64,000 bases of DNA. It comes from an uncultured delta proteobacterium. Its GTDB lineage: Bacteria; Desulfobacterota; Syntrophorhabdia; Syntrophorhabdales; WCHB1-27. Where the stretch lies: contig CAWEPK010000012.1 in the NCBI GenBank assembly GCA_963810935.1, positions 256,001-320,000 on the forward strand, read 5' to 3'. This document shows, piece by piece, positions 31,834 through 53,660 of the stretch (within the stretch, counting starts at the first letter, position 1; the number at the start of each line of letters is the position of its first letter). The notes beneath the pieces are model-generated. The model was not told the origin of the DNA and did no database searches. It worked only from the letters and a program-made list of their open reading frames with translations. The position numbers were made by a program, and so were the translations under genes.

Positions 31834-32099
31834 GATAAAGAACGGCTGATCGGGAAGGAAAGAATAAGGTAAGGTATTCTTCCTGAAAGAAAGTGGTTTA
31901 ATGTTTTTCTTGCGGTACAACATTACTCGTGGATATAATTAACCTATGCGGTGGGAGCGGAGAATGCGAGCACATACCGAACAATAGGTTGTCCCCTTTT
32001 TCTTTCGGGGGGACCAGTTATTTACTTCATTGATTACTCGTGCCCGATTCGAGGAGCAAGACTGACGCGACCGCTGACACTTGCAACGAAGGGGACCGT

Positions 32100-33080
32100 A
32101 TGCAGCAATTTGGAGTTCTGAAGAAGGTCAATATAAGGGATATTTGGAAAAATGAGGCAACAGAATTCACAGTTTGGCTGTGCGACAATTTGCAGGCCCT
32201 AGGCACCAGCTTGGAGATGGAATTGGAGTTGGAAAAGAGAGAAGCAGACGTGGGGGATTTTTCCCTTAGAATACTCGCTCGGGACATCAGTCGTAACCGT
32301 CTTGTCGTCATTGAGAATCAATTTGGGAGAACTGACCACAGACATTTGGGACAACTTCTGACGTATGCGGCCGGGTTCGACTCCTCTGCCTTATTTGGAT
32401 CGCGGAGGGATTCAGGGAGGAGCACCGGCAGACTTTAGATTGGTTGAATCAAAACACGACCGAAAGTATCGACTTTTACGGAGTCGTAATAGAGGCTGCT
32501 GCAAATCGACGATTCGAGACCTGTTCCCAACTTCAAATTGGTGGCGTTTCCCAATCAGTGGCGTAAATCCATTGCGCCCACAGCGCAACCGACAAAACGA
32601 GGAGAGGCTTATCGCTCTTATTTTCAGAACTTAATCGATGCCTTAAGGGCAAAACGATTCACTTCCGCTCAAAAAGGACAACCCCAGAGCTGGTATTCGT
32701 TCTCTTCGGGCATGCCGGGAATTGTATACGGTAACAGCTTTGCCCAAGGTGGACGCGTTCGGGCAGAGATTTATATAGACAGAGGGGACACTGAGCTAAA
32801 TAAACGCTTATTCGACAAACTCTTTGAGGATAGACATAATCTGGAAAAGGAGTTTGGAGAACCCCTTGAATGGGAGAGGCTTGACGGCAAACGGGCTTCC
32901 AGAATCGTGATCTACAGGCCAGGGAGCATCGAGGATGGCCCAAGGTCACTGGAAGAGATACGCGACTGGTCTATAGAAAAGTTGTTCAAATTAAGAAAAG
33001 TGTTCGCAAAGAAAGTTGAAGCGCTATTGGCCCAGGTGGGAGGCAATGACGGCGGCATAGGGGCGAACTCCGAGCAGTAA
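32100..33080 (+). CDS. DUF4268-domain protein with N-terminal PD-(D/E)xK (NucS-like) nuclease; two frameshifts
   Basis: [37 protein letters not shown] and [14 protein letters not shown] motifs. Confidence 0.8.
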
Positions 33081-33371
33081 GCTTGATGGTAAGAAAGCAT
33101 AGAGGGCTCTGGGCCTAAGGAAAGCCCGTTGGACTAAACGCCCAACGATTTGAATGACCCAGATGTTGCCCGTCTCACGTTCCTTTCCTGCATTAAGTGA
33201 TTCAGACCTTTCTGGGACCGTAGCGGCTTTCGGCTGGCAATGTTAACCCCACCTCCCGCACAATGGATAACAAGCCTATCAGTTGAACGTGGTACCCTGC
33301 TGCCTCTTTTGTCAGGAGCTAACCCCACCCGTCACAAGTCACGTCAGAACGTTACGGCCCCGAGGCCCTTC

Positions 33372-35550
33372 TTAATCCTCGCTGACATCGGACTTGCTCA
33401 ACGCCTCACTGGCTTTTTTCTTTTCTTCCACATAATCTAGCTTGATTATGATCGGTCGCTCGCTCTTGATAGCCTTGCCGTAAGCGATAGCTTCGAGAAA
33501 GCGGAGGTTAGGGATGCTTTGCACGTGCCCCGAACTGTACACGTTGCCTAGGTAATTAGGCTCGTCTTGTCGAACAACGAGAAGGTTATGCACGTATTGC
33601 ATTGCGATAGAATCGACTTACTGACAAGAGCGGTACGCTGCGAGACAATTAGAAGGCCAACACCATACTTTCGGCCTTGAAGGGCAATTTGTGATATTCG
33701 ACCTACTATCCATTGCGTGTCGTTGTCAAAACCCGCCCCCATAGTCTCAGGAATTATGGTGTGTGCTTCTTCGAGGACGATTAACACTCTTCGTGCACGC
33801 CTGTTGTTGCGTGCCCACTCCATGATGCTTGAAAGGTATAGTTCGGTCGCCCTCAGGGTTGCCTTTGTGTTTGTGATCTCCGGTAACTCGAAAATTCCCA
33901 AAGATGGCCCAGACTGCAGACAAAAAAACGTTGACCTTTTCTCTGATAGGTTTCCTGATGCTGTCAACAAAAACCTTAAGGTTCTTCTTCTCCTCGGGCG
34001 CTCCGTACGGCGTTGTGTCGACGGCAAAGAGCTTCCGATCGTAGTTCTTCGGCCTGTTTCTGGTCCAATCCTAAAAGCTGGGGGTTGGCGTCTGATAGCC
34101 TTGCCTTGTACTCGCCGGTGAAATCAACACAAAAGACCTTAGTCCCAAGCGATAAACCCTTACGGATTATATCAAACGCAAGCTCCGTCTTCCCGGTGCC
34201 GGTCACGCCTAATATCGCCGTGTGGTATTCCAGCAGGTCGAAGAAGTTAGCCCTGACGGCAATCTCAGAGCTTGGGACTTTGCCTATCACAAACTCATCT
34301 TCCCTTGTGGCTGTATATTTGTATTCGACTGGCGTTGTGGGGACAAAGACGGGGCAGTTCATCGCGGGCAACCAGCCGTATTTCGCGAAGCCCTTTTCAG
34401 CGTGGAGGCACCCTAGCTGAGCGGCCGTAACGATATGCTTCCCCCTCGGGTTTCTGCCGAAGCTCTCTTCCGCTGTTCTTGCGTCCAGTATTTGGTAGAA
34501 CACCGTTTGATCGCCCTGCCGACAAAATGATAGCATGCCTTCTTCTATCTTCATGTCCGAGGAAACCTCGAACTTGATAGCCGAGATATTGGAGTCTTCG
34601 ACGACAAAACCAAGGAGATGTGCCCCGCTGTCGAGCCCGCTCAACTCCTTCAAAATGCCCGTACAGTCCGTGCAGTTTTCCCCTAGATATACCGTTCCAG
34701 GCGTTAGACCGTCTACGGGCGTATTCGCTTCCTTACGGCATAAGGCAGTACCCACAGGTTGGTCTTCCTCAAGATGGCTGAACAGACAGAGAGCCTCAAC
34801 CTGTCTGCCGTCAGGCAGACACACTAAAGACACCGTGTTTGGTTGCCAGTTCTCGGGCGACGTCAACGCCACTCGAATGATATTCGGGTTATCCACGCGT
34901 GTGATAGTCCCGAGCACCGCATGAAGGTTCACAGTACGGGAGGTAAGCCTTAGCTCTCGAACTATGCGGAAGACAAGCTCCACAGGCCTCACCGCCACCA
35001 TCAAAACCCACGCGAAAAGGAGCCACAACTGTTGCATAGGGGCGTGCTGATAATATCCGAGGATGCTTACTAAAGCAGGGGGCGTAAAGACTATCTCTCC
35101 CTTTCCGAGCGTGTCGCTGATCCTGTAGCCTAGGACTGCTGTTTGCTTCTTGATGGGGTGCTGACTGGGGTCTAGATCAACAAGGCCCATTGCTGTGATA
35201 GCGCAGATCGAAGTGACTATGTCTATCCCGATAATAATCCAGCGAAAGATGTTTAGCGGCTCCTGGAGCAGCGCGACACCTGCCAAATCCAAGGTGCTGA
35301 AAAGAAGAGCCGAAGTGACCGCATTCACTAAGGCGTTACGAGGCGGGCGAAACCAAGGGGCAGTTAACTGAGTCAGAAAGAAGAATCCAATGCCACTGAG
35401 GAACCATAGCCGTTTGCCGGAGGTCGAAGGAAACCATTCACCCGTAACGCATATGCTCAACAGAACAAGAATGCCCGCGTACAGGAAGAGGGCAGATAGA
35501 CGTTCCTTTTGTGTCGGATATGCCGTGCCCTTGTAATCGTCATCCGGCAT
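33372..35550 (-). CDS. HerA/DUF87-family ATPase with N-terminal multi-pass membrane domain; two frameshifts
   Basis: HTAILGVTGTGKT (Walker A), LIVLEEAH (Walker B), GRKYGVGLLIVSQR; about 6 N-terminal hydrophobic segments. Confidence 0.8.
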
Positions 35551-35996: not shown

Positions 35997-36696
35997 ATGA
36001 AAATTCTAATGGTTCTGACGTCACATGATCGATTGGGCAACACCGGCCGCAAGACCGGCTTTTGGCTGGAGGAATTCGCGGCGCCCTACTATGTATTCCG
36101 TGATGCCGGTGTGGACATCACACTGGCCTCGCCTAAAGGGTGGGCAGCCGCCGATCGATCCGAAGAGCGACTTGCCCGAGGAGCAGACTCCTGCGATGAC
36201 ACGGTTCAAGCAGGACGCGGAAGCGCAAAAGGCCCTGTCCCGGACACTCAAGCTGTCCCATATGAAGTCGGAGGATTTTGACACCATATTCTACGTGGGC
36301 GGCCACGGTCCGATGTGGGACCTCGTAGACAACCCCGACTCCATCGCCTTGATCGAGTCTTTCTACAACTCAGGGAAGCCCGTCGCCGCGGTCTGCCATT
36401 CACCGGCCGTGTTCCATCGGGTGATGTACAAGGGCGCTCCGCTCATAAAGGGCAAGCGGGTAACCGGCTTCACCAACGGAGAAGAAGAGGCGGTCCACCT
36501 CACCAATGTCGTGCCCTTCCTTGTCGAGGACGAGCTGAAGAAGGTCGGCGGCCTCTATGAGAAGGCGGCCGATTGGGAGAGCTTTGCAATCGTGGACGGC
36601 CGCATCGTCACGGGGCAGAACCCTGCCTCGTCCACGGCCGCAGCTAAGGCCCTCATGAGTGTAGTCGCCGAGAAGAAGAAGGAGAAGGCTGCTTAG
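35997..36696 (+). CDS. DJ-1/PfpI (type 1 glutamine amidotransferase-like) protein; frameshift near 36137
   Basis: TGFWLEEFAAPYY, GGHGPMWDL, AVCH and TGQNPASS motifs. Confidence 0.9.
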
Positions 36697-41006: not shown

Positions 41007-41111
41007 TGCGGGCAACTGCAAGCGTCGCCTTGAAAGCTAAATAGCGAAATGGTAGATTATGCCTATGCACCTGCAAGGAAATAGGCGGGTCAGGCCGGAC
41101 CGGAGGTTGCC

Positions 41112-41756
41112 ATGAATGATCTCGGCAAGCTGGTCGGGGCGCTTCTCGACGGCGATACGGCCGTTTCCCTGGCCGAAGCAGGAGCCCTCAGGCGCGCAGG
41201 CGTGAGCGTCGAGCGCATCGTGACCGAAGGCGTCGAGTCCGCAATGCAATCCCTGGACGGCAAGTGCACCCTTGAACAGTTCAACCTCCTTGAGATCATG
41301 CTCGTCGGACGGGCGGTAACGGGGGTGATGAAATCCCTCTTTCCCGAGGGCATTCCGTCGACCGGCGCAGGCACCGTTGTCATCGCCGCCCTCGAAGGAG
41401 ACATCCACGACCTGGGCAAGAACATCCTGAAGATGGTCCTCACCGGCAACGGATATCGTGTCGCCGACTGCGGCAAAGACTGTCCCCTCGAAAGACTCCT
41501 CGACGCCGCCGAAAAAGAGATGCCCCTCGCCGTGGGGGTGAGCGGCCTTATCACGCCCGTCGTCCCTCTCGTCCGCCGCCTGCGTCCCCTCCTGAAGGAG
41601 CGCGGACTCGGACACATCAAGGTGATGGCCGGAGGGGCCGCCCTCAAGCAGTCCTCGGCGGAAGGATTGAATGTTGACTACGTCGCGGAATCCGCCTTCG
41701 ATGGGGCCCGATACATCGCGGGTATTGCGGGGAGGCCCGGCAATGAACAGCCTTGA
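41112..41756 (+). CDS. Corrinoid (B12-binding) methyl-carrier protein
   Basis: DIHDLGKN (DxHxxG), SGL and AGGA motifs. Confidence 0.92.
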   Translation: MNDLGKLVGALLDGDTAVSLAEAGALRRAGVSVERIVTEGVESAMQSLDGKCTLEQFNLLEIMLVGRAVTGVMKSLFPEGIPSTGAGTVVIAALEGDIHDLGKNILKMVLTGNGYRVADCGKDCPLERLLDAAEKEMPLAVGVSGLITPVVPLVRRLRPLLKERGLGHIKVMAGGAALKQSSAEGLNVDYVAESAFDGARYIAGIAGRPGNEQP

Positions 41757-42756
41757 GCGCGTTCGCGCGTGCGTCGGCTTCGGGGAGACCGACCGCGTCC
41801 CGGTTATCCCCCAGGTTTTCGGACACGCCGCGATGATGCAGGGCGTCCCCCTGGACGCGTACGTTCAGGACGGCGACCTTATCGCCAGGTGCCAGGCCTA
41901 CGCGCTGGATAGATACCGCTATGACGCGGTTTTCACGGTGATGGACGTGAGCGTCGAGGCGGAAGCCATGGGCGCGTCCCTCAGGTACTTCACCAATGCA
42001 TATCCCGTGATCGAGACCCGGCCGCTCGCCGCAGCGGACGACTGGAGCACGTTCCCCATGCCCGATCCCGGCCGGGCCGGCCGGATGCCGGAGATGCTCA
42101 AGGCCTTGAAAATCCTGCGGCACGACCTCGGCGATAGGTTTCCGGTCGTCGGCTGCGTGATGGGACCACTGACGCTCGCGGCCCAGCTCCTCGGCGCGGA
42201 GGAAGTCCTCTACCTGGCCATCGACGAGCCCGAACGGTTCGCCGGCCTGCTCGATTTTTCTGCGGAAGTGGCGCTCAGGTTCGGCGTCGCGCAAATAGAG
42301 GCAGGCGCCCATATCCCGCTCGTCTTCGATCCCTTTGCGTCCCCCGCCGTCATTCCGGCACAGCTCTTCCGCGAGTTCGAGCTTCCACACCTTAAAAGGG
42401 TTTTTGAAGGTTTCGCGCGGCATGGCGCCCTCGCGAGCTGGCTCCATATAGCTGGACCCGCGCAGCCTATACTTCACCTCTACCCCTCCGCCGGCGTCGA
42501 TATCGCCAATTTCGACTATTGCGTTTCTCCCGCCGAGGCCCGGTACCGGCTTCCCGCCTCCTGTCTCGACGGGAACGTAAGACCTATGTCTTTCATCGAT
42601 GGAAGTCCCGAGGATATCCGCGCGGAGGCGTCATCGCTCCTCGGGTCGTTCCGGGACCGGCGCGGGTTCATTCTTTCGTCCGGATGCGAGATCCCGCCGG
42701 AGTCGAAGCCTGAAAACGTCGCAGCCCTCGTTGAAGCGGCCAAAAGCAAGAGTTAG
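41743..42756 (+). CDS. MtaA/CmuA (URO-D superfamily) methyltransferase-like protein
   Basis: DRVPV, VEAEAMG, GPLT, LHIAG, DGN and FILSSGCEIP motifs. Confidence 0.88.
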   Translation: MNSLERVRACVGFGETDRVPVIPQVFGHAAMMQGVPLDAYVQDGDLIARCQAYALDRYRYDAVFTVMDVSVEAEAMGASLRYFTNAYPVIETRPLAAADDWSTFPMPDPGRAGRMPEMLKALKILRHDLGDRFPVVGCVMGPLTLAAQLLGAEEVLYLAIDEPERFAGLLDFSAEVALRFGVAQIEAGAHIPLVFDPFASPAVIPAQLFREFELPHLKRVFEGFARHGALASWLHIAGPAQPILHLYPSAGVDIANFDYCVSPAEARYRLPASCLDGNVRPMSFIDGSPEDIRAEASSLLGSFRDRRGFILSSGCEIPPESKPENVAALVEAAKSKS

Positions 42757-42762
42757 CGCCGG

Positions 42763-44424
42763 ATGCCTTTCCTTTTCATCTCATCCGCAGAAGAAAGGAA
42801 AACCGTCGAGTTTACGGCAGGCCCCTCGCTCCGCGACCTGCTCGACTTGACGGACCTCCGGGTCCGCTCCGGCTGCCGTGGATCGGGCGCCTGCGGCCTT
42901 TGCCGCGTCCGTGTCGAGGAAGGGGAAATCGATGGCCCCACACAAAACGAGACTTTCCTCCTTTCGCAAGAAGACCTCCGCCGCGGAATCCGCCTCGCCT
43001 GTCAGGTCACGCCTAAACAGGACCTTAGCCTGACCATTGTCAACCCCGCGCCAAAATCGAGCTGGAGGAGCCTCAGGCCCGAGGAAGTTCCGGCCGGCCC
43101 CGGCTCTTTTCCGGCGCCTATCAGGAAAATCAAGGATGACAAACGCTACGGGGTCGCCGTGGACCTCGGGACCACCCACGTAAGCCTCTCCCTTTGGGAC
43201 ATGGCCGGGAATCGCCGGTTATCGGGGCGATTCGGCCGGAACCTGCAGGCAGGCTGCGGGTCCGACGTCATGACGAGGCTCGTATATGCCGACGCGTCCG
43301 CGGAGAACGCGGAAACGGCCGGGCGGGCGGCAAGGGATTCCATCAGCGACGGATTGCGCGACATCTGCTCCAGAGAGGGGTACGACCCGAAAAAGATCGG
43401 GCGGATAACGGTAGTAGCCAACACGGCCATGCTTTGCCTTCTCGCGCGACGCAACTTCGAGCTGCTCCTCCAGCCGGAATACTGGGCAAGGGAAATCGAC
43501 TGCGCACCCGCCTTCGTAAACGGCTGGTTCGAGGGCGCCGGCCTCGACGAAGGCGTTCCCATCGAGATTGTGCAGCCTCTCGCGGGCTTCGTCGGCTCGG
43601 ACCTCCTCGCGGGGGTCATAGCCACACGCATAACTGAAGGCGATAGTCCGGCCCTGCTCGTTGACTTCGGGACCAACTCCGAGATCGCCTTATGGGACGG
43701 GCGGCTGCTATGGGTAACCTCGGCAGCCGGGGGACCGGCCTTCGAAGGCAGCGGCATAAGCTGCGGTATGCCGGCAGGCGACGGGGCCGTTTACCGGATC
43801 GACGGACCGGACGGAGGACCGGGGCCTGTCGCCCGGGTAATCGGAAACGGCAGGGCCGAAGGTCTCTGCGGCTCGGGCATGGTTGACCTGGTGGCCTATA
43901 TGGTAAGGACGGGAAGGCTCGACAGGATCGGGAACTTCGGCGCCGGGTTCGATCACGGCCTCCCGGAAGAGATCCGCCGCATCATGCCGCAGAAGAAGGA
44001 CATCGATACGTTTCAGCGGGCGAAGGCAGCCATCGGCGCCGGCATAGAGCTCCTGTCGGCTCGCGCCGGGGCGCCGGCGGAGGACATCCGGCGGGTATCG
44101 ATCTGCGGCGTCTTCGGGCAGTATTTGAATGTGATCGACGCGATAGCCATCGGCCTGCTGCCTCCCGTGCCGCCCGAGCGCGTAGAGCTATGCGGCAACG
44201 CGGCGCTCGCCGGGTGCGAGAGCCTTCTTTTGTCGCACGAGAGAAGGAAATATTTGAACTTTCTGAGAAAGAAATGTAAGCTTGTCAATCTCTCACAAGC
44301 GCCCGAGTTCGAAGATCTGTTCCTCAGGAATCTCTATCTCCAACCCGGATATCGAGCGAAGCGGGCTGAGCGGAAGACGGAGGCGGGCTTACCGATGGAA
44401 GTAAGCGCCAAGCCGGATATTTGA
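42763..44424 (+). CDS. ASKHA-type reductive activator of corrinoid enzymes (RACE/RACo, DUF4445) with N-terminal [2Fe-2S]
   Basis: CRGSGACGLC...LACQ, VDLGTT, DFGTNSE, GPAFEG and GLCGSG motifs. Confidence 0.9.
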   Translation: MPFLFISSAEERKTVEFTAGPSLRDLLDLTDLRVRSGCRGSGACGLCRVRVEEGEIDGPTQNETFLLSQEDLRRGIRLACQVTPKQDLSLTIVNPAPKSSWRSLRPEEVPAGPGSFPAPIRKIKDDKRYGVAVDLGTTHVSLSLWDMAGNRRLSGRFGRNLQAGCGSDVMTRLVYADASAENAETAGRAARDSISDGLRDICSREGYDPKKIGRITVVANTAMLCLLARRNFELLLQPEYWAREIDCAPAFVNGWFEGAGLDEGVPIEIVQPLAGFVGSDLLAGVIATRITEGDSPALLVDFGTNSEIALWDGRLLWVTSAAGGPAFEGSGISCGMPAGDGAVYRIDGPDGGPGPVARVIGNGRAEGLCGSGMVDLVAYMVRTGRLDRIGNFGAGFDHGLPEEIRRIMPQKKDIDTFQRAKAAIGAGIELLSARAGAPAEDIRRVSICGVFGQYLNVIDAIAIGLLPPVPPERVELCGNAALAGCESLLLSHERRKYLNFLRKKCKLVNLSQAPEFEDLFLRNLYLQPGYRAKRAERKTEAGLPMEVSAKPDI

Positions 44425-44434
44425 GGGCCGGCTC

Positions 44435-47400
44435 ATGAAGGAAATGAATCCCCAGCGTCATACCGAGGCTTTCATAAAGGCGGCGCAATACATAGCGCGC
44501 CTCACCGCCCGGCAGGACCTTCTCGAAGAGCTGTCAAACATCATCGTCAAATATTTCGGAGCGGACTGGGTTGCCTTCGCCGGAGATAACGCGGGCGGAG
44601 AGATCGACCTTCGTCGATGCACGGTGGCTGACGAGAGCTTCCGCAGGGCGCTCCTCGAAAAAACAACGGAAACTATTCGGGACGTTTTCGATACGGGTTT
44701 CCTTGCTTCCATGGAGATCGAGCATCCCCCGGCTCGCAACGTTACCTTCCTGCCGCTCGGGGAAGGAAAGGAGAACCGGGTTGCAGCGATCATCGGCCAT
44801 TCGGAGCCTCCTTCCCAGGAGCTGCTCAACCTCTACCTGGCCCTTTCGGGACTCGCGGGCTCAACCATGGGCAGGATCGCGACCGAGAGGGAGCTGAGGC
44901 TGCACCAGGAACATCTCGAAGAGCTCGTGAGAGAAAGAACGGCCGCGCTGCAAACATCGAAGGACGTCATACAAGAGCAGCGTGAATGGCTGAGGGTTAC
45001 GCTGGCGAGCATCGGCGACGCGGTCATGGCCACGGACAAGAGCGGACGGGTTACCTTCCTGAACGCGGTCGCCGAAGGCCTGACCGGCTGGACCCTTGGT
45101 GGCGCAGCCGGGAGACCGGTCACCGAGGTGTTCCACATCATCAACGAGCAGAGCCGCAAGACGGTAGAAGACCCCGTCGGCAGGGTGCTACGTGAGGGGA
45201 TCATAGTTGGCCTGGCCAACCATACCGTGCTCGTAAGGAAAGATGGGACGGAGGTCGCCATCGACGACAGCGGCGCCCCCATAAAGGACGGGGACGGCAA
45301 CATCATGGGCGCAGTCCTCGTCTTCCGCGACATCACCGGGCGCAAAATGGATGAGGCGATGCTGCGCGAAAGCAAGACCCGTCTCGACCTTGCCCTCCGG
45401 TCCGCCGACATGGGCGCCTGGCACTGGGACATTCCGGCGGACAAGCGGTACTTCGACGACCAGGTCTGCCGCCTTTTGGGCATAGACCCGCAAACGTTCA
45501 CCGGAAACGCAGCGGAGTTCTTCGACGTGGTGCATCCCGACGACCGAGAGAACCTCCACGCGGCGCTTGCCCGGACCGTCTCGGAAAACGCCCCTTACGA
45601 GCCTGAATACCGCGCGGTCCTGCAGGACGGGACCGTCCATTACATTGCCGCGAGGGGAAGGCTTGTCCGTGACGGCGCAGGCAGACCTGCGCGGCTCAAC
45701 GGCATCATCTGGGACATCACGGAACGCAAGCACCGCGAGGCGCGCATCACAAGGCTCACGCACCTCTACGCCACGCTCAGCCGGGTGAATGAAGCCCTCG
45801 TGCGCATCCGCGACGGGGGCGCGCTGTACGAAGAGGTCTGCCGCATCATCGCGAAAGAAGGGGCATTCCCTCTCGTGTGGATCGGCGAGGTGAAAGACCG
45901 GCAGGTGGTGCCGGCTGCATACTGCGGGCCCGCCGCCGACTACCTCAGGGATATAAGAATAGAGGTGGACGGCGTGTTGGGTGACGGCCCCAGCGGGACC
46001 TGCATCCGCGAGGACCGACCCGTCGTCAACGACGACTTCGATATCAACCCTACCACCCTGCCGTGGCGCAAAGCAGCCCTAAGCCACGGCTTCAGGGCCA
46101 GCGCGTGTTTCCCCCTGCACCGTCAGGGCAAGGCCATAGGCGCCCTTACGATCTACGGCAGCCAGCCCCACGACTTCGACGCGGAGCAGGTGGAGCTGCT
46201 TCAGGCCCTCGCCGCCGATATCTCCTACGCCCTCGACACGCTGGAGCATGAAAAGGTGCGGAGCCGAGCCGAAACCGACCTCCAGAAGAGCCTCAAGCGG
46301 TTCGAACTCCTCGCCTACACTGCGAGCGAGCTGCTCCGTGCCCCGGACCCGCAGAAACTGGTCGACTCCCTGTGCCGGCAAGTGATGGACCAACTCGGCT
46401 GCCAGGCCTTCTTCAATTTCCTTGCGGTCGAAGAGATGGGAAGGCTCATGCTCAACGCCTATGCGGGTATCCCCGAAGAGGAGGCCCGGAAGATCGAATG
46501 GCTCGACTACGGGGTAGCCGTTTGCGGCTGTGCCGCCAGGGACGCCTGCCGGATAGTGGCCGAGCACATCCCTACTACGCCCGATCAGCGCACGGAGCTG
46601 GTAAAATCTTACGGCATCAAGGCGTACGCGTGCCATCCGCTCCTCGGGCCCGAAGGGTCGGTCATCGGCACTCTCTCCTTCGGCACCCGCGACAGGGAAA
46701 CCTTCAGCGACGAGGACCTCTCCCTGATGAAGGCAGTGGCCGACCAGGTGGCCGTGGCCATTATCCGCATGAGGGACGAGGACGCCGTGAAGCAGGTCCG
46801 CGACGGGCTTGAAGAGCGTGTGAAGGAAAGGACGGCGGAGCTTCAGGAGGCGTACGACAAGCTCATGCGCGAGTCCGAGGAACGGGAGAAGGTCGAGAGG
46901 CCAGCTCCGCCAGGCGCAGAAGCTGGAGGCCCTCGGGACGCTATCCGGCGGCATCGCCCACGACTTCAACAACATGCTCGCCTCCATCATCGGCTTTACC
47001 GAGATGATCAAGGACCATACCCCTGATGGGAGCCGGGAGCATCGGCATGCACTGAGGGTTCTGGAAGCAGGCATCAGGGGGCGCGACCTCGTCAGGCAGA
47101 TGCTGATGTTCTCGCGGCAGACCGAGCAGGAAAAGAAACCGCTTCGCCTGTCGAGTATCGTCAAGGAGAGCGCCAAGCTCCTCCGGGCATCGATACCGTC
47201 CACAGTCAGCATCAGGGTCGTCATAAAAAGCGAGTCGGGCGTCATCCTCGGCGATCCTACCCAGGTCTCGCAGGTCCTCATGAACCTTGCCACGAACGCG
47301 GCCTACGCGATGCGGGACAAGGGAGGCACCCTCGACATAGAGCTTTCCGATTTCAGCGTCTCGCCCACCAACGGGGACCCGCACGGCATAGAGCCGGGGC

Positions 47401-48068
47401 TATACATGCGGCTGACGGTCCGCGACACGGGCGCCGGCATACCCGCGGAGATCGCGGACAGGATATTTGACCCATTCTTCACGACAAAGAAAATCGGCGA
47501 GGGGACCGGCCTCGGCCTCTCGGTAGTGCTGGGCATCGTCAAGCAGGTCAGCGGGTATGTCACGGTGGACTCCGCACCGGGCGAAGGCTCGACCTTCAGC
47601 GTCTATTTTCCGAAGATCGTTGAAGAGCCGGTTGTGCAAGGGGCGGCCGGGGACGAGACTGCGCCCGCCGGCAAAGAGAGCATCCTCTTCGTGGACGATG
47701 AAGAGGCGCTCGTGGAGATGGGCGAGGAGCTTCTCGCGGAGCTTGGATACGAGGTCACTTCCCGCGCGGGGAGCAGGGAGGCCCTGGCCCTTTTCAGGCT
47801 CGACCCCTCCCGCTTCGACCTCGTGATAACCGACCAGACCATGCCAGATATGACCGGGGTCCAGCTCGCATCGGAGCTTCTCTCCATCCGGCCCGATATA
47901 CCCGTCATCCTTTGCACCGGCTTCAGCCACACGGCCAGCGAGGAGTCGGTGAGGGCGGCAGGCATAAAAGGGTTCGTCATGAAGCCCCTGACAAAACGGG
48001 AGCTTGCAAAGACGCTCAGAAAGGTCCTCGACGCGCGAGACGCAGACGAGCCCCCCGGCCGGCGATGA
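44435..48068 (+). CDS. Hybrid sensor kinase GAF-like/PAS/PAS/GAF/GAF/HisKA/HATPase/REC (frameshift near 46900)
   Basis: TLASIGDAV, GAWHWD, GGIAHDFNN, FFTTK-GEGTGLGL, FVDDE and TDQTMP motifs. Confidence 0.9.
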
Positions 48069-48134: not shown

Positions 48135-48926
48135 GTGAAACCGACAAGCACCGAAATCAGGAAAGGCTTCTACAACAGGTCGCTGGAAAGGGCGCTCCAG
48201 ATACTCGATGTATTCAGTCTGGAGCGTCAGGCGCTCAGCAAAAGCGAGCTTTCCAAGCTGCTCGGCCTTTCAAGGGCCACTATCCTCAGGCTCTGCTCTA
48301 CCCTGGCCCAGTATGGCTATCTCAGGCAAGACCAGGAGACCAAGAAATATTCCCTCGGCATGCGGCTGTTCGAGCAGGGGAGCGTCGTTTTCAATTCCCT
48401 TTCGGTCCGGAAAGCCTCGGCCATGCCCCTCACCCGGCTCCAGCAGCGGATAGGCAAAACTATCTTTCTGTGCATCCTCGACAATGACGAGCTGCTTTAC
48501 ATCGACAAGAGGGATGACGGCAACAGCATCATTACGTTCACCTCCAAGATAGGCACCCGCCGGCCCCCTTACTGGGGGATGTGCGGCCCCATGCTCATGT
48601 CCCACCTCCCCGACGATGAGACAGAAAGGCTGCTGGCCAAACACCCGTTAAAGGCGCTGACAAGGCGATCGGTCACCGACAGGAAAGAATTCAAAGCCTG
48701 GCTGTGCAGGGTAAAGGACCAGGGATACGCAATCGACCCGGAGGCGACCCTCGAAGGGATCACGGGGGTAGCCGCCCCTGTCAGGGATTTTTCGGGAAAG
48801 GTCATAGCCTCCGTAGGAGCGGCGATCTTCTCCTCGTCCCTGACCGACGACATCCTGCCGACAATAATAAGCGCGGTTTCGGATACGGCCCTGACGGTCT
48901 CGATCAACCTGGGGTATAAACCGTGA
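48135..48926 (+). CDS. IclR family transcriptional regulator
   Basis: SLERALQIL, YSLG, GYAID and VAAPVRD motifs. Confidence 0.92.
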   Translation: MKPTSTEIRKGFYNRSLERALQILDVFSLERQALSKSELSKLLGLSRATILRLCSTLAQYGYLRQDQETKKYSLGMRLFEQGSVVFNSLSVRKASAMPLTRLQQRIGKTIFLCILDNDELLYIDKRDDGNSIITFTSKIGTRRPPYWGMCGPMLMSHLPDDETERLLAKHPLKALTRRSVTDRKEFKAWLCRVKDQGYAIDPEATLEGITGVAAPVRDFSGKVIASVGAAIFSSSLTDDILPTIISAVSDTALTVSINLGYKP

Positions 48927-49000
48927 GTTGCGCGCTTACGGCGTCGCGTCGCGCTCCAGCCCTTTTCAGAACAGCCGGACGCGCCGGCCGCTGTTTTTTC

Positions 49001-49065
49001 TTGACAAAGAACGAGGTTCCCACGTATTGTTTACTAAATGCACAGGGTATGTTCACTAGATGAAC
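49001..49065 (+). promoter_or_regulatory. Sigma70-type promoter with paired putative IclR operators
   Basis: TTGACA (49001) N18 TATTGT; palindrome GTTCA-CTAGA-TGAAC (49051-49065) and degenerate copy GTTTACTAAATGCAC (49029-49043). Confidence 0.6.
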
Positions 49066-49126
49066 ACTTGAACAAAGCGTAAAGCTCTAGCCGCACCGGG
49101 AACTAAACCTAGATAAGGAGAGGCAT

Positions 49127-50459
49127 ATGGCTATCGATCCAAGTATCTATTGGAACCCCATTACCGAGACGCTGCCCAGGGAGAAGCTGCAGGAGCTTCA
49201 AGTCAGGAAGTTCAGGCGCATCTTCACGTGGGCGTATGAGAAATCGCCCTTTTACGGCAAGCTTTACAGGGACGCAGGCATAGAGCCCGGCGACATCAAG
49301 ACGCTTGCCGATATAAGGAAGGTGCCCAAGATAGATAAGGGTATGCTCCGGGACGTGCAGACCAGACCGCCCTTCCCTTACGGAGACATGCTCGCGGTGC
49401 CCCTGAAAGACGTAACCTGTTTCCGCCAGACGAGCGGCACTACCGGCACCCCCGTCTATCAGGCGGACACGTGGCAGGATTGGGAATGGTGGGCCGAGTC
49501 ATGGGCCTATATCCTTTATGCCCAGGGTTACAGGGACACGGACCGCATGTTCATCCCCTTCGGCTACAACATCTTCGTCGCCTTCTGGGCGTGCCATTAC
49601 GCAGCGGAAAAGCTGGGCTGCGAAGTCGTCCCCGGCGGCGTCCTCGACACAGAGGCGAGGGTCATGAAGATGAAGGAGCTTAAATGCACCGCCTTCGGCG
49701 CCACCCCTACCTACGTGCTCGGCCTTGCCGATACGGCGAAGAAGATAGGGATAGACCCGAGGAGCATAGGCATCAAGCGCATCACCTGCGCAGGCGAGCC
49801 CGGCGCGGCCATTCCGACGACCAAGCAGCGCATCGAGGACGCATGGGGCGCGAAGGTCTACGACCACATAGGCGCGACCGAGATAGGCGCCTGGAGCTAC
49901 ATGTGTACCCACCAGTCCAGGGGCCTGCACGTGAACGAGGCGTTCTTCCTGGTCGAGATCGAGGACGTGGAGACCGGCGAGATCATAGAAGAGCCGGGCA
50001 AGAACGGCAAGATGATCATCACCGCCTTCGACAGGATGGCAAAGCCGTGCATCCGCTTCGACTCGAAAGACGTCATCCGCTGGGCCGACTACTCGTGCGA
50101 CTGCGGCAGGACGTTCCGCATCATCGACGGCGGCGTGGTAGGCAGGGCGGACGACATAACGAAGGTAAAGGGCGTGCTCCTGGCCCCCACCGCGATAGAA
50201 GAGGTCGTGCGCAGCTTCACCGAGTCTGTCGGATGAGTACGAAGTGGTCGTTTCCAAGAAGGGCGATATCGACGACATCTCCCTGAAGGTAGAGATCAAG
50301 CCGGGCCTTGAGGGAGATAAGGAATCGATCCTCGCCAGGCTCAAGGACGAGCTGCGCGTAAAGACGAACCTCGGGTATAAGATCGAGGTCCATCCCCACG
50401 GCAGCCTTCCCAGGTATGAGGTGAAGGCGAAGAGATTCAAGGACCTGAGAAAACACTAG
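49127..50459 (+). CDS. Phenylacetate-CoA ligase (PaaK) family protein; frameshift near 50225
   Basis: TSGTTGTP, AGEPG, GATE, GRADD and KAKRFKDLR motifs. Confidence 0.88.
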
Positions 50460-50471
50460 GAGGGGCAAGCC

Positions 50472-50651
50472 GTGATAGACAAAAAGAAACTGGAAGAAAT
50501 GGATGCGCGTATAAAACTGATCAGAAAGACCGCCGAGGAGTTGACGGCCACGTGCGAGGGGATCGAGGCGGTTAAGAAGAACGTAGTCCGCCTCCTTGCC
50601 AGCACCCGGATGCTCGAGCTCAATATAAGCGATGTGAAGGACCTGCTTTAG
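50472..50651 (+). CDS. Small hypothetical protein (59 aa)
   Basis: GGAGGGG RBS; MIDKKKLEEMDARIKLIRK...LELNISDVKDLL; below the ORF-track cutoff. Confidence 0.65.
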   Translation: MIDKKKLEEMDARIKLIRKTAEELTATCEGIEAVKKNVVRLLASTRMLELNISDVKDLL

Positions 50652-50759
50652 AGCGAGCCGGCCGTTAACTGTGAGTCGTTGCCTCGTCCCTGCACCAGGC
50701 AAGGCGTTCAAAGTCAAAGCATCCCGGGGGGGACGCAGCACTTTAACAGGGGGGATTCA

Positions 50760-51245
50760 ATGGAAAACGCTCTCGACCTTTTCCTGAGGGTTTGCAAGGC
50801 GGTGCTTAACGTCGTTGCCAGCGCCGCCCTTACCTTCATGATGTTTCTTACCGTCGCCGACATTGTCTGCCGTGCCCTCGGCCACCCGCTCGTCGGCACC
50901 TACGAAGTAGTCAGCCTTGCACTCGCCCTCGTCATAGGGTTCGGCATCCCCAGGGTCTCTTTGGATAAGAGCCACGTCTACATGGAGATAGTCCTGGAGA
51001 AGGTCGGCATGAAGGCCAAGGCCGTCCTAAACACGTTCACGAGATTGATCTGCCTCTGCCTTTTCATCCTTATCTCCTACAACCTGTTCAGCATAGGCGC
51101 AGAGTTCCATACGTCAGGCGAGGTCTCTCCTACGATCAGGCTCCCCTTCTACCCGATAGCCTACGCGGTGGGGGTCTGCTGCTTCATAGAATGTGTGGTC
51201 TTCATCTCGCAGCTCGTGAAGATCTGGAGGGGCCATTATGAATGA
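50760..51245 (+). CDS. TRAP transporter small permease DctQ
   Basis: 4 TM segments, HVYMEI; adjacent to dctM. Confidence 0.88.
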   Translation: MENALDLFLRVCKAVLNVVASAALTFMMFLTVADIVCRALGHPLVGTYEVVSLALALVIGFGIPRVSLDKSHVYMEIVLEKVGMKAKAVLNTFTRLICLCLFILISYNLFSIGAEFHTSGEVSPTIRLPFYPIAYAVGVCCFIECVVFISQLVKIWRGHYE

Positions 51246-52542
51246 GATAACTATAGGCATCGTCGCGCTCGTCATCCTTCTGGCCCTTTTCTCTACGGGC
51301 ATAGAGCTGGGGTTCGCCATGGCCGCGGTCGGCTTCTGCGGCTTCGCTTACTTCAACGGCTTATCAGCCGCAATGAACTTACTTGGAAGGGACGTCTACG
51401 ACGTCATCACGAACTACGGCTACACGGTCTTCCCCCTGTTCATCCTCATGGGCCAGATAGGCTTCAACGCCGGCATTGCGGTCAGACTCTATTCGGCCGC
51501 CAATAAGTTCGTTGGCCACATCCCGGGCGGCCTCGCCATGGCGACCGTCATAGGCGCCACGGGGTTCAAGGCGATCTGCGGCTCGTCGGCCGCGACCTCG
51601 GCCACCTTCGCTGCCGTCGCAGTCCCCGAGATGGACCGCTTCGGCTACGACAGGAGGCTCTCGACCGGCATCGTCGCAACGGTCGGAAGCTTGGGCTGCA
51701 TAATCCCTCCCTCCGTCGTCCTCATCATATTCGGCATATTGACCGAGCAGTCGATAGGCCAGCTCTTTCTGGCAGGCATGATCCCGGGCTTCCTGATCGC
51801 CTTCCTCTTCCTTTTCATCATCTACGGGTGGGCCAAGATATACCCGAAGGCCGCACCATTGTCCGCGAGGTCAAGCTGGGCAGATAGGGCAAGGAGCCTG
51901 CCGGAGGTCGTCTGGATCGTCCTCGTCTTCTTCCTCGTCGTGGGCGGCATGATGGCCGGCTACTTCACGCCTACGGAAGCGGGCGCGGTAGGCACCTTCG
52001 CCATCTTCATCCTATCGATAGTCACCCGTAACATGAACTTCAAGAAGTACGTCCTCTCGCTTGCCGAGGCCACCCGCACGGCAGGCATGATCCTGATGCT
52101 GATCGCAGGCTCGACCATACTCGGCCACTTCATCGCAGTGACCAACATACCCCAGGCCGTGGCCGACTGGATAGTCTCCCTGCCCCTGAACCGGTACGTA
52201 ATCATGATACTCATCTGCTTTGTCTACGAGCTGGGGGGCTCCTTTATCGACGATCTGGCCTTTATGATCCTTGCGACCCCTATCTTCTATCCGGCCGTCT
52301 TAAAGCTCGGCTTCAGCCCGTTATGGTTCGGCATAGTGATCGGCGTAGTCGTCATGATCGGGGTTGTCATCCCGCCTGTCGCAGTCTGCGTCTTCGTCGT
52401 AAAGAACATCACGAAGGAGCCGATGGGCCGCATATACAGAGGCGTGGCCCCGTTCCTGCTCTCTTTAGTCTTTGTCTGGGGCCTTATGTTCGTCTTTCCC
52501 CAGCTTGCCCTCTGGCTGCCCTCGGTCTTCTATGGCAAGTAA
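51238..52542 (+). CDS. TRAP transporter large permease DctM
   Basis: PLFILMG, GSSAAT, IIPPS and TPTEAG motifs. Confidence 0.92.
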   Translation: MNEITIGIVALVILLALFSTGIELGFAMAAVGFCGFAYFNGLSAAMNLLGRDVYDVITNYGYTVFPLFILMGQIGFNAGIAVRLYSAANKFVGHIPGGLAMATVIGATGFKAICGSSAATSATFAAVAVPEMDRFGYDRRLSTGIVATVGSLGCIIPPSVVLIIFGILTEQSIGQLFLAGMIPGFLIAFLFLFIIYGWAKIYPKAAPLSARSSWADRARSLPEVVWIVLVFFLVVGGMMAGYFTPTEAGAVGTFAIFILSIVTRNMNFKKYVLSLAEATRTAGMILMLIAGSTILGHFIAVTNIPQAVADWIVSLPLNRYVIMILICFVYELGGSFIDDLAFMILATPIFYPAVLKLGFSPLWFGIVIGVVVMIGVVIPPVAVCVFVVKNITKEPMGRIYRGVAPFLLSLVFVWGLMFVFPQLALWLPSVFYGK

Positions 52543-52595
52543 GAGGGGTAAATGGGGTATAAAGATACGCAAAAACCTTCAAAGGGGGTAACAAG

Positions 52596-53660
52596 ATGCT
52601 AAGAAAACTGACGGTCTTCCTATGTGTCCTCGCGCTTTGTCTCTCGTTCTCTTCGATTGCCGGCGCGGATGTGATCAAGCTGAAGCTGGCCAATTACTTC
52701 CCGCCCGTCCACATGAACTCGGTCATGCTCGGCAAGTGGGCCGACGGGCTTAACAAGAAGCTCGCAGGCAAGGTGGAGATCACCCAGTATACGGGCGGCA
52801 CGCTTCTTACCGCCCCCAAGATCGCCCCGGGCGTGCTGACGGGCATTGCCGACATCGGCTTCTCCCACTGCTCGTACACCCGCGGCCGCTTCCCCGTAAT
52901 GGAGATCATGGAGCTGCCTATAGGCTTCCCGAGCCCCTGGATCGCGGGCCACGTCTCCAACGACTTCTATGACAAGTTCAAGCCGAAGGAATGGGACGCC
53001 TTCCATCCCATCATGTTCTCGACGAGCCCCGTCAACGTCCTCCAGTCGCTCTCAAAGCCCGTAAAGACCTTGGAAGACATAAAGGGCATGAAGCTACGGG
53101 GCCCCGGCAGGATAGGCGACATAGCCCGCGCCCTGGGCGCAGTCCCGATGCCTATCGAGATCGTCGATACCTATGAGGCCCTGCGCCGCGGCGTAGTGGA
53201 GGGCAACTTCGGTCCGTTAGAGCAGCTCAAAGGGTTCAAGATCGGCGAGGTAGAGAAGTACGTCACCGCCTCCTGGAAGATAGGCAGCGTCTTCTCCTTC
53301 TACGTAATCATGAACAAGAACAAGTGGAACAGCCTGCCCGCAGACGTCCAGAAGATCATAACCGACTACTCCAAGGGCGAGTTCTTAGACCAGTGGCTTG
53401 TCGAGTGGAACCGCATTGACATCGAGGGCGGCGACTGGTTCAAAAAGCAGGGCGGCCAGATAATCAACATCTCCGACGCCGAGAGCGCCAGGTGGGTAAA
53501 AGCAGCACAGCCCGTCATCGCAGACTTCAAAAAAGACATGATCGCCAAGGGCTACAAGGCCGCCGAGGTCGATGCCTGGATAGCCTTCATCAAAGAGCGC
53601 ATCGAATACTGGAAGGCCCAGGAAAAGGCAAAGAAGATACCTACGGCGTATCAGTACTAG
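52596..53660 (+). CDS. TRAP substrate-binding protein DctP
   Basis: Signal peptide; DIKGMKLR, YEALRRGVVEG and WNSLPAD motifs. Confidence 0.92.
   Translation: MLRKLTVFLCVLALCLSFSSIAGADVIKLKLANYFPPVHMNSVMLGKWADGLNKKLAGKVEITQYTGGTLLTAPKIAPGVLTGIADIGFSHCSYTRGRFPVMEIMELPIGFPSPWIAGHVSNDFYDKFKPKEWDAFHPIMFSTSPVNVLQSLSKPVKTLEDIKGMKLRGPGRIGDIARALGAVPMPIEIVDTYEALRRGVVEGNFGPLEQLKGFKIGEVEKYVTASWKIGSVFSFYVIMNKNKWNSLPADVQKIITDYSKGEFLDQWLVEWNRIDIEGGDWFKKQGGQIINISDAESARWVKAAQPVIADFKKDMIAKGYKAAEVDAWIAFIKERIEYWKAQEKAKKIPTAYQY

Follow-up and report, generated by a model that had tools for sequence, protein, structure and literature searches.

Known regulation by vitamin B12 works through riboswitches or, as in CarH, through the light-driven loss of an adenosyl group. 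CarH, CtMerR and the photocobilins 8J2W and 8J2Y use a cap and a Rossmann B12 domain as a signalling switch. In methyl transfer, MtaABC and MtaA–RamA, the acetogen O-demethylases and the Cdm system share a corrinoid protein with a D-x-H-x-x-G motif, an MtaA-like barrel and a RACo-type activator. Here we describe a locus of four genes in a 64 000-nucleotide stretch of DNA (the window; G000:C12:256001-320000) in which such a corrinoid protein, barrel and activator, together called the kit, precede a hybrid histidine kinase. The genome is 4.06 Mb in size and 93.5% complete with a contamination figure of 7%, and the closest kin of the barrel and kinase proteins carry Syntrophorhabdales names.

Several features of the methyl-transfer systems bear on this locus. 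Proteins of the UroD fold act as the substrate-specific methyltransferase (MT1) in CdmB, MecE and CmuA (PMC13222342; PMC9768040), the zinc-free barrel of CdmB has been proposed as a gate to Co(I) over the upper corrin face (PMC13222342), and the activators reduce Co(II) to Co(I) with ATP being spent (PMC3727330; 10.1101/192971). The regulation of such pathways has been called largely unexplored (PMC13222342). The mec cassette for dichloromethane unites a PocR kinase (MecA), MecB, MecC/E/I, MecF and MecG/H, that is a kinase, a corrinoid protein, proteins of the MtaA/CmuA family and an activator, in one cluster (10.1101/2021.08.30.458270; PMC9768040). The Methanosarcina kinases MsmS, RdmS and MA4377 are likewise linked to mts corrinoid-methyltransferase genes, but they control the expression of catabolic enzymes, and their corrinoid proteins are the regulated target and not a proposed input (10.1101/2021.03.04.434021). 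We found no description of the present cassette in the literature covered, which takes in few subscription papers and no supplements; the accessible portion of PMC11096178 has nothing on it.

Linkage of the kit to a GAF head

The four genes lie on the same strand and are joined, in order, by a 14-nucleotide overlap, a 6-nucleotide gap and a 10-nucleotide gap, exactly as the first-pass annotation of this DNA had given them, and the arrangement was computed to be far above chance expectation. The kinase begins with a head of 160 residues and continues with PAS, PAS, GAF, GAF, HisKA, HATPase and receiver domains. The head, earlier called an atypical GAF-like domain, has no Pfam match in the window protein; its predicted model (predicted local distance difference test score of 89.6) has mostly GAF domains as its top structural matches, and it superposes on those of PtsP (3TRC) and of a kinase (3CIT) with a Z-score of 15.2 and a root-mean-square deviation of 3.0 over 140 aligned residues at 11–15% identity. 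Weak matches to GAF_3 occur in 19 of 65 head-family members. By its modelled fold the head is a member of the GAF superfamily, although the family differs from the GAF domains of PtsP and 3CIT by occurring almost only behind the kit. It is a discrete family (374 clusters at 50% identity, 336 of them at E ≤ 1e-10) with no Pfam model of its own and with no invariant cysteine or histidine, H122 being present in 55 of 65 members.

The kit and the head are linked in both directions. For the forward search, 36 of the 120 listed barrel homologues were aligned and used to query GTDB genomes, and the best 80 of 168 relatives were kept. In 73 of these 80 loci, or 73 of the 75 that can be evaluated, as five contigs end too early, the barrel gene is followed at no more than 2.3 kb by a homologue of the 160-residue head. 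A full activator is found in 66 of the 73, a 2Fe-2S domain only, fused to the head, in five and no activator in two. In the reverse search, 18 of the 65 head sequences, without any kit gene, served as the query against metagenomes, and the best 80 of 98 relatives, making up 66 clusters at 90%, were kept. A kit gene stands directly upstream of the head in 73 of these 80, or 73 of the 74 that can be evaluated, six loci having too little upstream DNA; this gene is the activator in 56 cases, the barrel in 12 and a 2Fe-2S domain only in five. Wherever at least 3.4 kb of upstream sequence is available, both the corrinoid-protein and the barrel genes are present (34 of 34 loci). Besides signalling domains, no neighbour family, metabolic families included, occurs in more than four of the 80 forward loci.

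What follows the head is variable. Among 150 family representatives the output is HATPase in 100, GGDEF in nine and PP2C in five; a scan of 30 of the other 36 found four HD-type domains, two HisKA, one HATPase and one winged helix, the rest having PAS or GAF domains only or nothing, many of them probably fragments. HisKA, HisKA_2 and HisKA_3 kinases were all seen (33 of 75 proteins scanned), and the kinds of output comprise three kinase types, GGDEF, HD-GYP, PP2C and DNA-binding domains. The parts are also fused in several ways. Proteins P0126 and P0128 have a full activator joined to the GAF head and kinase, the five 2Fe-2S-only forward loci carry Fer2–GAF–kinase fusions, and locus L208:23-4488 has the barrel and activator in one protein of 885 residues. 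In the next protein of L208 the GAF head is preceded by a Tll0287-like domain and followed by a GGDEF output, which shows that the head is compatible with a second input.

A further view of the unit comes from a genome of the same genus (G407), in which the flanks are 92–93% identical to the window. Between the stop codon of the upstream dehalogenase gene (41006) and the coil before the first PAS domain (~44998), G407 has an SBP_bac_3 head and a hydrophobic stretch instead. The replacement removes exactly the three genes and the GAF head, and the orthologous kinase is retained. The SBP_bac_3 head is a periplasmic solute-binding sensor head; because G407 carries it at this place, the three genes and the GAF head fill the slot of a sensor domain. 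The swap counts as a single event, which the data would allow in either direction. We conclude, with a probability of roughly 0.85, that the kit and the GAF head form one exchangeable sensor input module in front of varied outputs. The first-pass annotation had proposed a candidate sensory system that may not be catabolic, and had reasoned that the idea would fail if homologous triads were unlinked to signalling proteins; the two-way linkage and the G407 swap support it, the triads being tied to signalling proteins with this head. It had named methyl-donor availability, the cobalt redox state and halomethanes as signals, any of which may be the one read.

Signatures of the barrel, corrinoid protein and activator

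The nearest solved structure to the barrel is MtaA (4AY7; Z-score of 43.0, root-mean-square deviation of 1.7, 326 residues aligned). The LHICG motif of MtaA aligns with LHIAG of the barrel, which thus lacks the middle cysteine of the H-x-C…C zinc motif of MtaA and MtbA. This H-x-A form is found in 118 of 120 protein matches and in 48 of 49 reverse loci, neither set having been selected by motif and neither containing H-x-C, as well as in 71 of 72 forward loci, a set that was partly motif-selected. The barrel scores 155.6 bits against the MtaA/CmuA family model TIGR01463 (cut-off of 235.4) and 97.9 bits against the HemE model TIGR01464 (cut-off of 302.95). Where the two HemE copies of the same genome have WLMRQAGR the barrel has IPQVFGH, and the absence of the RQAGR motif rejects it as a true HemE. 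In a quick tree of 60 rows, which includes 19 forward loci and no CdmB, the barrels form a clade of their own, separate from CmuA, with 100% support in the SH-like approximate likelihood-ratio test; CdmB matches the barrel weakly (E of 4.9e-10).

The corrinoid protein has the D-x-H99-x-x-G motif, H99 being present in 71 of 71 sequences, and is predicted from its sequence to bind a cobamide. Its cap carries an invariant motif, C52-T-x3-F-N-L-L-E-I-M, and C120 and C124 are near-invariant. Cys52 occurs in 71 of 71 sequences and in 37 of 37 of the reverse set; 7XCN, 8SSD, 1Y80, CmuA and six paralogues from the window's genome have Phe or Tyr at this site. Cap residues 52 and 53 align with Trp131 and His132 of CarH. 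The key adenosylcobalamin-binding residues of CarH are Trp131, Glu141 and His142 (PMC11796333), at whose positions the present protein has C52, I62 and M63, and on this cap motif an adenosylcobalamin photoreceptor was rejected. Unlike CarH, the kit keeps its B12 domain as a separate protein, unfused to the output and accompanied by a barrel and an activator, and light sensing is not indicated. The activator, the ATP-dependent reductive component of a four-component system, retains the 2Fe-2S cysteines C38, C44, C47 and C80 and the ASKHA ATPase motifs (55 sequences).

The first-pass annotation had argued against catabolism from the lack of an MT1 gene. This argument is invalid, since UroD-fold proteins can themselves be MT1 enzymes, and the missing piece is instead the methyl-acceptor step. 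MtaABC, the O-demethylases and Cdm differ from the kit in just this respect: the kit has one transferase-fold protein and no acceptor transferase (MT2) at the locus, and further has H-x-A in place of H-x-C, the cap cysteine and the tight linkage to signalling proteins. Across the 80 loci no second transferase family, MT2 or other methyl-acceptor transferase recurs. No MttB was found in the genome at the stated completeness (MtaB and the coenzyme M or homocysteine acceptors were not among the genome-wide searches). The genome does contain several pterin-binding MeTr-like genes elsewhere, some of them beside other corrinoid/UroD clusters. Five other carriers, all incomplete genomes judged by frame length, were surveyed for pterin-binding proteins, and in four the only ones resemble folate synthase and long MetH-type frames.

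These MeTr-like genes, an activator that looks intact and the precedent of mec (10.1101/2021.08.30.458270) would fit a methyltransferase cluster of the ordinary kind, catabolic or detoxifying, that has an adjacent regulator, the head sensing substrate or product and the MT2 lying elsewhere. We consider this unlikely. The mec cluster contains MecF as its MT2, several transferases and a PocR sensor regulating the cluster, whereas the kit has a single barrel, no MT2 nearby, no PocR match, a GAF head and interchangeable outputs. Those outputs are often non-transcriptional (GGDEF, HD-GYP and PP2C), activators are fused to kinases, the G407 swap drops the enzymes along with the head while the kinase stays, and the carriers include a purple sulfur bacterium and two methanogen genomes in which the cassette is the only URO-D match. 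Judged by its sequences, the kit has parts like those of a corrinoid methyl-transfer set yet falls outside MtaA, HemE, mec and CarH.

Surroundings, related loci and distribution

The coordinates of the features are collected in Table 1. The kinase had been described as a protein of about 1200 residues; this length stands for the intact protein, but in the window it is not one open frame, being split into 863 and 364 residues by one extra base just 5′ of the H-box. The base is missing from contigs of three of four short-read runs (X1, X2 and X4, from one study that possibly sampled the source site), X3 being without coverage there, and the frame is unbroken in the nearest kinase homologue (P0121). 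Because the short-read contigs are without the extra base, the kinase is probably intact and a real pseudogene is unlikely; the frameshift is likely to be an assembly error. Further extra bases that these contigs do not share, at 36135, 37175 and 50225, lie at splits in other window genes. After the break the H, N, G1, F and G2 boxes and the receiver Asp and Lys are all present in frame, as befits a hybrid kinase. The kinase has no transmembrane segment, and all parts of the system are predicted to be cytoplasmic. A promoter and terminator scan stayed at chance level, with two promoter-like sites against 1.7 expected, and no RNA data set with this sequence appeared among the sequencing runs listed.

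Table 1. Positions of the kit, the kinase and related features; plain numbers refer to the window and prefixed ones to the locus named.
Feature	Position	Strand	Remarks
Corrinoid protein, 214 aa	41112..41756	+	PF02310; four-helix cap and Rossmann domain
UroD/MtaA-fold TIM barrel, 337 aa	41743..42756	+	PF01208; H235-I-A, D258, C315
RACE/RACo-type reductive activator, 553 aa	42763..44424	+	Fer2, Raco_middle and RACo_C_ter
GAF-fold head of kinase, aa 1-160	44435..44914	+	Domain travelling with the three genes
Soluble hybrid histidine kinase, ~1210 aa	44435..48068	+	Catalytic motifs found
Extra base splitting the kinase frame	46898..46901	+	Not in short-read contigs; likely assembly error
Segment exchanged in G407 for SBP_bac_3 head	41007..44998	+	Bounds the input module
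NpRdhA-like reductive dehalogenase, 388 aa	39840..41006	+	Neighbour outside the unit
Second-type locus	L204:6372-9839
Second-type locus	L205:5121-8814
Second-type locus	L206:3662-7313
Second-type locus	L207:1834-5491

The first-pass annotation overlooked a reductive dehalogenase gene that ends 105 nucleotides upstream of the corrinoid-protein gene (TIGR02486, 197.8 bits against a cut-off of 160.35). It resembles NpRdhA (E of 5.9e-120) and is a single-domain protein with no membrane segment. We rejected it as a member of the unit: it is adjacent to the kit in none of 160 other loci and is retained in G407 without the kit. Dehalogenases of this type occur in 17 of 21 family genomes irrespective of the cassette, often in two or three copies; a second copy region in this genome lies at G000:C10:115651-116340, and the family-wide dehalogenase may merit study. 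NosZ was also rejected as a regulated target for this clade, since it was found in only two of 50 cassette genomes, on other contigs and not at the locus, and was not found in the window's genome; in this search the control genomes gave no signal and the two matches serve as the positive control.

A second type of cassette combines a corrinoid protein, a different barrel (H-x-A-S and NHGEIP) and a DUF1638–GAF protein fused to a kinase or GGDEF output; it was found in Azoarcus KH32C and in three cassette-bearing genomes. Its corrinoid protein has a CarH-like GxxW cap, and its GAF domain is weakly like the RACE-linked head (hhalign probability of 33%). The type occurs in 14 of 301 sampled Pseudomonadota genomes, and the DUF1638 gene comes next in 12 of 13 further loci. 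In Azoarcus KH32C it adjoins fhc and quinoprotein genes. DUF1638 is a partner of RamA-like activators (10.1101/192971), and this second type follows the same logic with DUF1638–GAF heads.

The cassette occurs in many unrelated anaerobes, with carriers in ten or more bacterial phyla as well as among methanogenic archaea. Its hosts belong to Desulfobacterota, Nitrospirota, Chloroflexota, Acidobacteriota, Bacillota, Planctomycetota, Pseudomonadota, Actinomycetota, Fibrobacterota and others, and the two archaeal lineages, Methanocellaceae and Methanoregulaceae, sit in different bacterial subclades in a quick tree. The head family is rare and patchy (two of 401 genomes in the phylum sample) and occurs once in the window's genome. 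The barrel clade is present in six of 21 family genomes, a tally that includes three genomes of the same genus, all without it. Ca. Dichloromethanomonas (L046) carries the cassette apart from its other UroD-family genes. Cultured carriers with a diguanylate cyclase output are Acetobacterium tundrae DSM 9173 (L029) and Ca. Thiodictyon syntrophicum Cad16T (L193). Two orphans were noted whose partners may lie elsewhere, a barrel of the same clade in an Armatimonadota genome (L044:10001-11008) and a GAF head on a low-GC metagenome contig (L086:744-1220).

Other observations concern the genome and the rest of the window. Four further corrinoid/UroD clusters (G000:C8:16766-19513, C9:112495-114518, C12:237942-248306 and C17:71250-85143) have ordinary caps and resemble conventional systems for demethylation; pterin-binding MT2-like genes and transporters accompany two of them, and the two barrels on C8 retain H-x-C. 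A pair of almost identical HemE genes (G000:C12:278568 and C14:3425) and three MeTr-like genes that nearly match one another (C2, C5 and C18) may reflect the contamination figure. Differences of one base in length from the short-read contigs occur at 36135, 36771, 37175, 38321, 38386, 41059-41064, 46898-46901 and 50225, and several account for split genes (glutamine amidotransferase-like, polysaccharide flippase and phenylacetate-CoA ligase-like), so that the assembly carries indel errors. The genes at 48135-53660, 3′ of the kinase, we take to be an IclR regulator, a phenylacetate-CoA ligase-like gene and a TRAP transporter; the synteny of this block, a possible aromatic-acid uptake locus, is kept in G407. 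An island of lower GC content (0.49–0.52) at 32040-35550 holds a split gene and a presumed 524-residue membrane protein joined to the start of a putative HerA-like ATPase.

Proposed chemistry and its meaning

The system is both real and conserved, it is very likely an input module for sensing, and the kit is likely to be an undescribed B12-based chemical sensor and not a pathway for feeding. This assessment draws on the two-way gene linkage, the interchangeable outputs, the activator–kinase fusions, the exchange for a periplasmic head, the change in the zinc motif and the cysteine of the cap, all of them comparisons of sequence and structure. From what is known of the families, the activator would use ATP to keep the corrinoid as Co(I), while the barrel would sit above the upper corrin face as a gate, as proposed for CdmB. 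An oxidant or electrophile passing the gate would convert Co(I) to Co(II). The cap, whose Cys52 would lie in the upper-ligand pocket, would shift its position or partner, and the GAF head would bind one of the states, directly or by way of the barrel or activator, and switch the output. Contact between the kinase and the corrinoid protein is a proposal; a complex prediction of the corrinoid protein, barrel and head scored 0.00 against a mark of 0.32 with controls not folded, and counts neither way.

The more general picture, a methyl-transfer kit repurposed as a receptor, is in our judgement slightly favoured: an ATP-primed cob(I)amide would be the probe, the barrel lacking the zinc motif would select the molecule, the cap cysteine, serving as ligand to cobalt or as methyl acceptor, would lock the switched form, and a dedicated GAF domain would plug into any output, in two architectures (RACE-linked and DUF1638-fused). 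On its particular chemistry, in which the kinase reads the cobalt state and oxidation of Co(I) is reset by the activator, our opinion is evenly divided. Oxidation is ranked first on two grounds: the sole reset enzyme in the operon reduces Co(II), methyl-Co(III) having no such enzyme there, and what is found fused to the kinase is the activator or its 2Fe-2S domain. Activators are not known to bind forms other than Co(II) or to take a methyl group off the cobalt. Nitrous oxide is known to oxidize cob(I)alamin.

The same parts could instead sense alkylation, with the barrel acting as an MT1 that transfers a methyl or alkyl group to Co(I) from a donor such as a halomethane or methyl sulfide, and the head reading either methyl-Co(III) or a methyl group passed to Cys52. 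MtaA as the barrel's nearest structure, the existence of UroD-fold halomethane MT1 enzymes, among which CdmB needs no zinc (PMC13222342), and the invariant Cys52 at a residue of the CarH upper-ligand pocket all point this way, as do the cassette in Ca. Dichloromethanomonas, the dehalogenase beside the kit in the window and the C1-metabolism genes adjoining the second type in Azoarcus. We regard alkylation, and either of these two states as the one read, as possible but doubtful: no demethylating partner recurs at the locus, which leaves resetting unexplained, the dehalogenase link is local only, and the barrel clade stands apart in the quick tree from CmuA and from the other UroD-family proteins of Ca. 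Dichloromethanomonas. Still more improbable, in our view, is a report on cobamide supply or on low-potential electron or ATP status, in which corrinoid loading or 2Fe-2S electron flow would set the output. The Fer2–GAF–kinase fusions without the ATPase, the cytoplasmic location of all parts and the lack of a recurring substrate-specific neighbour would suit it, but no complete cassette is without the barrel, and no other part is as well conserved (mean distance of 0.53 for the barrel compared with 1.15 for the head). This suggests a specific ligand, and the patchy spread (6/21 in the family, 0/3 in the genus) is unlike that of a housekeeping monitor.

Several observations weigh against the repurposed receptor with activator-driven reset. 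The barrel retains H235, D258 and C315, which could still bind a metal, so that it may be an active enzyme, and the MeTr-like genes of the genome could act in trans. The activator is absent from two of the 73 forward and 12 of the 73 reverse loci (14/146) and cut to its 2Fe-2S domain in five more of each (absent or truncated in 7/73 and 17/73), so that the reset may come from elsewhere or be unneeded. Two forward loci have no head, L024 with a broken activator and L044 with the barrel alone, and one reverse locus (L086) is a head alone. The pairwise distances of the four parts correlate (r of 0.71–0.84 over 32 loci), which speaks for the unit but would be expected for any co-inherited operon. 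No regulated target gene recurs across the loci, the dehalogenase type being present in three of 50 cassette genomes.

Such clusters in metagenomes call for caution before they are annotated as methylotrophy or dehalogenation genes, and the cultured hosts make the system testable. If the sensor reading holds, the system would sense by a new principle, with cobalt redox or alkylation chemistry feeding into kinases, diguanylate cyclases and phosphatases, and it could explain how anaerobes detect the attackers of B12 enzymes (oxidants, nitrous oxide and halocarbons) or methyl donors.

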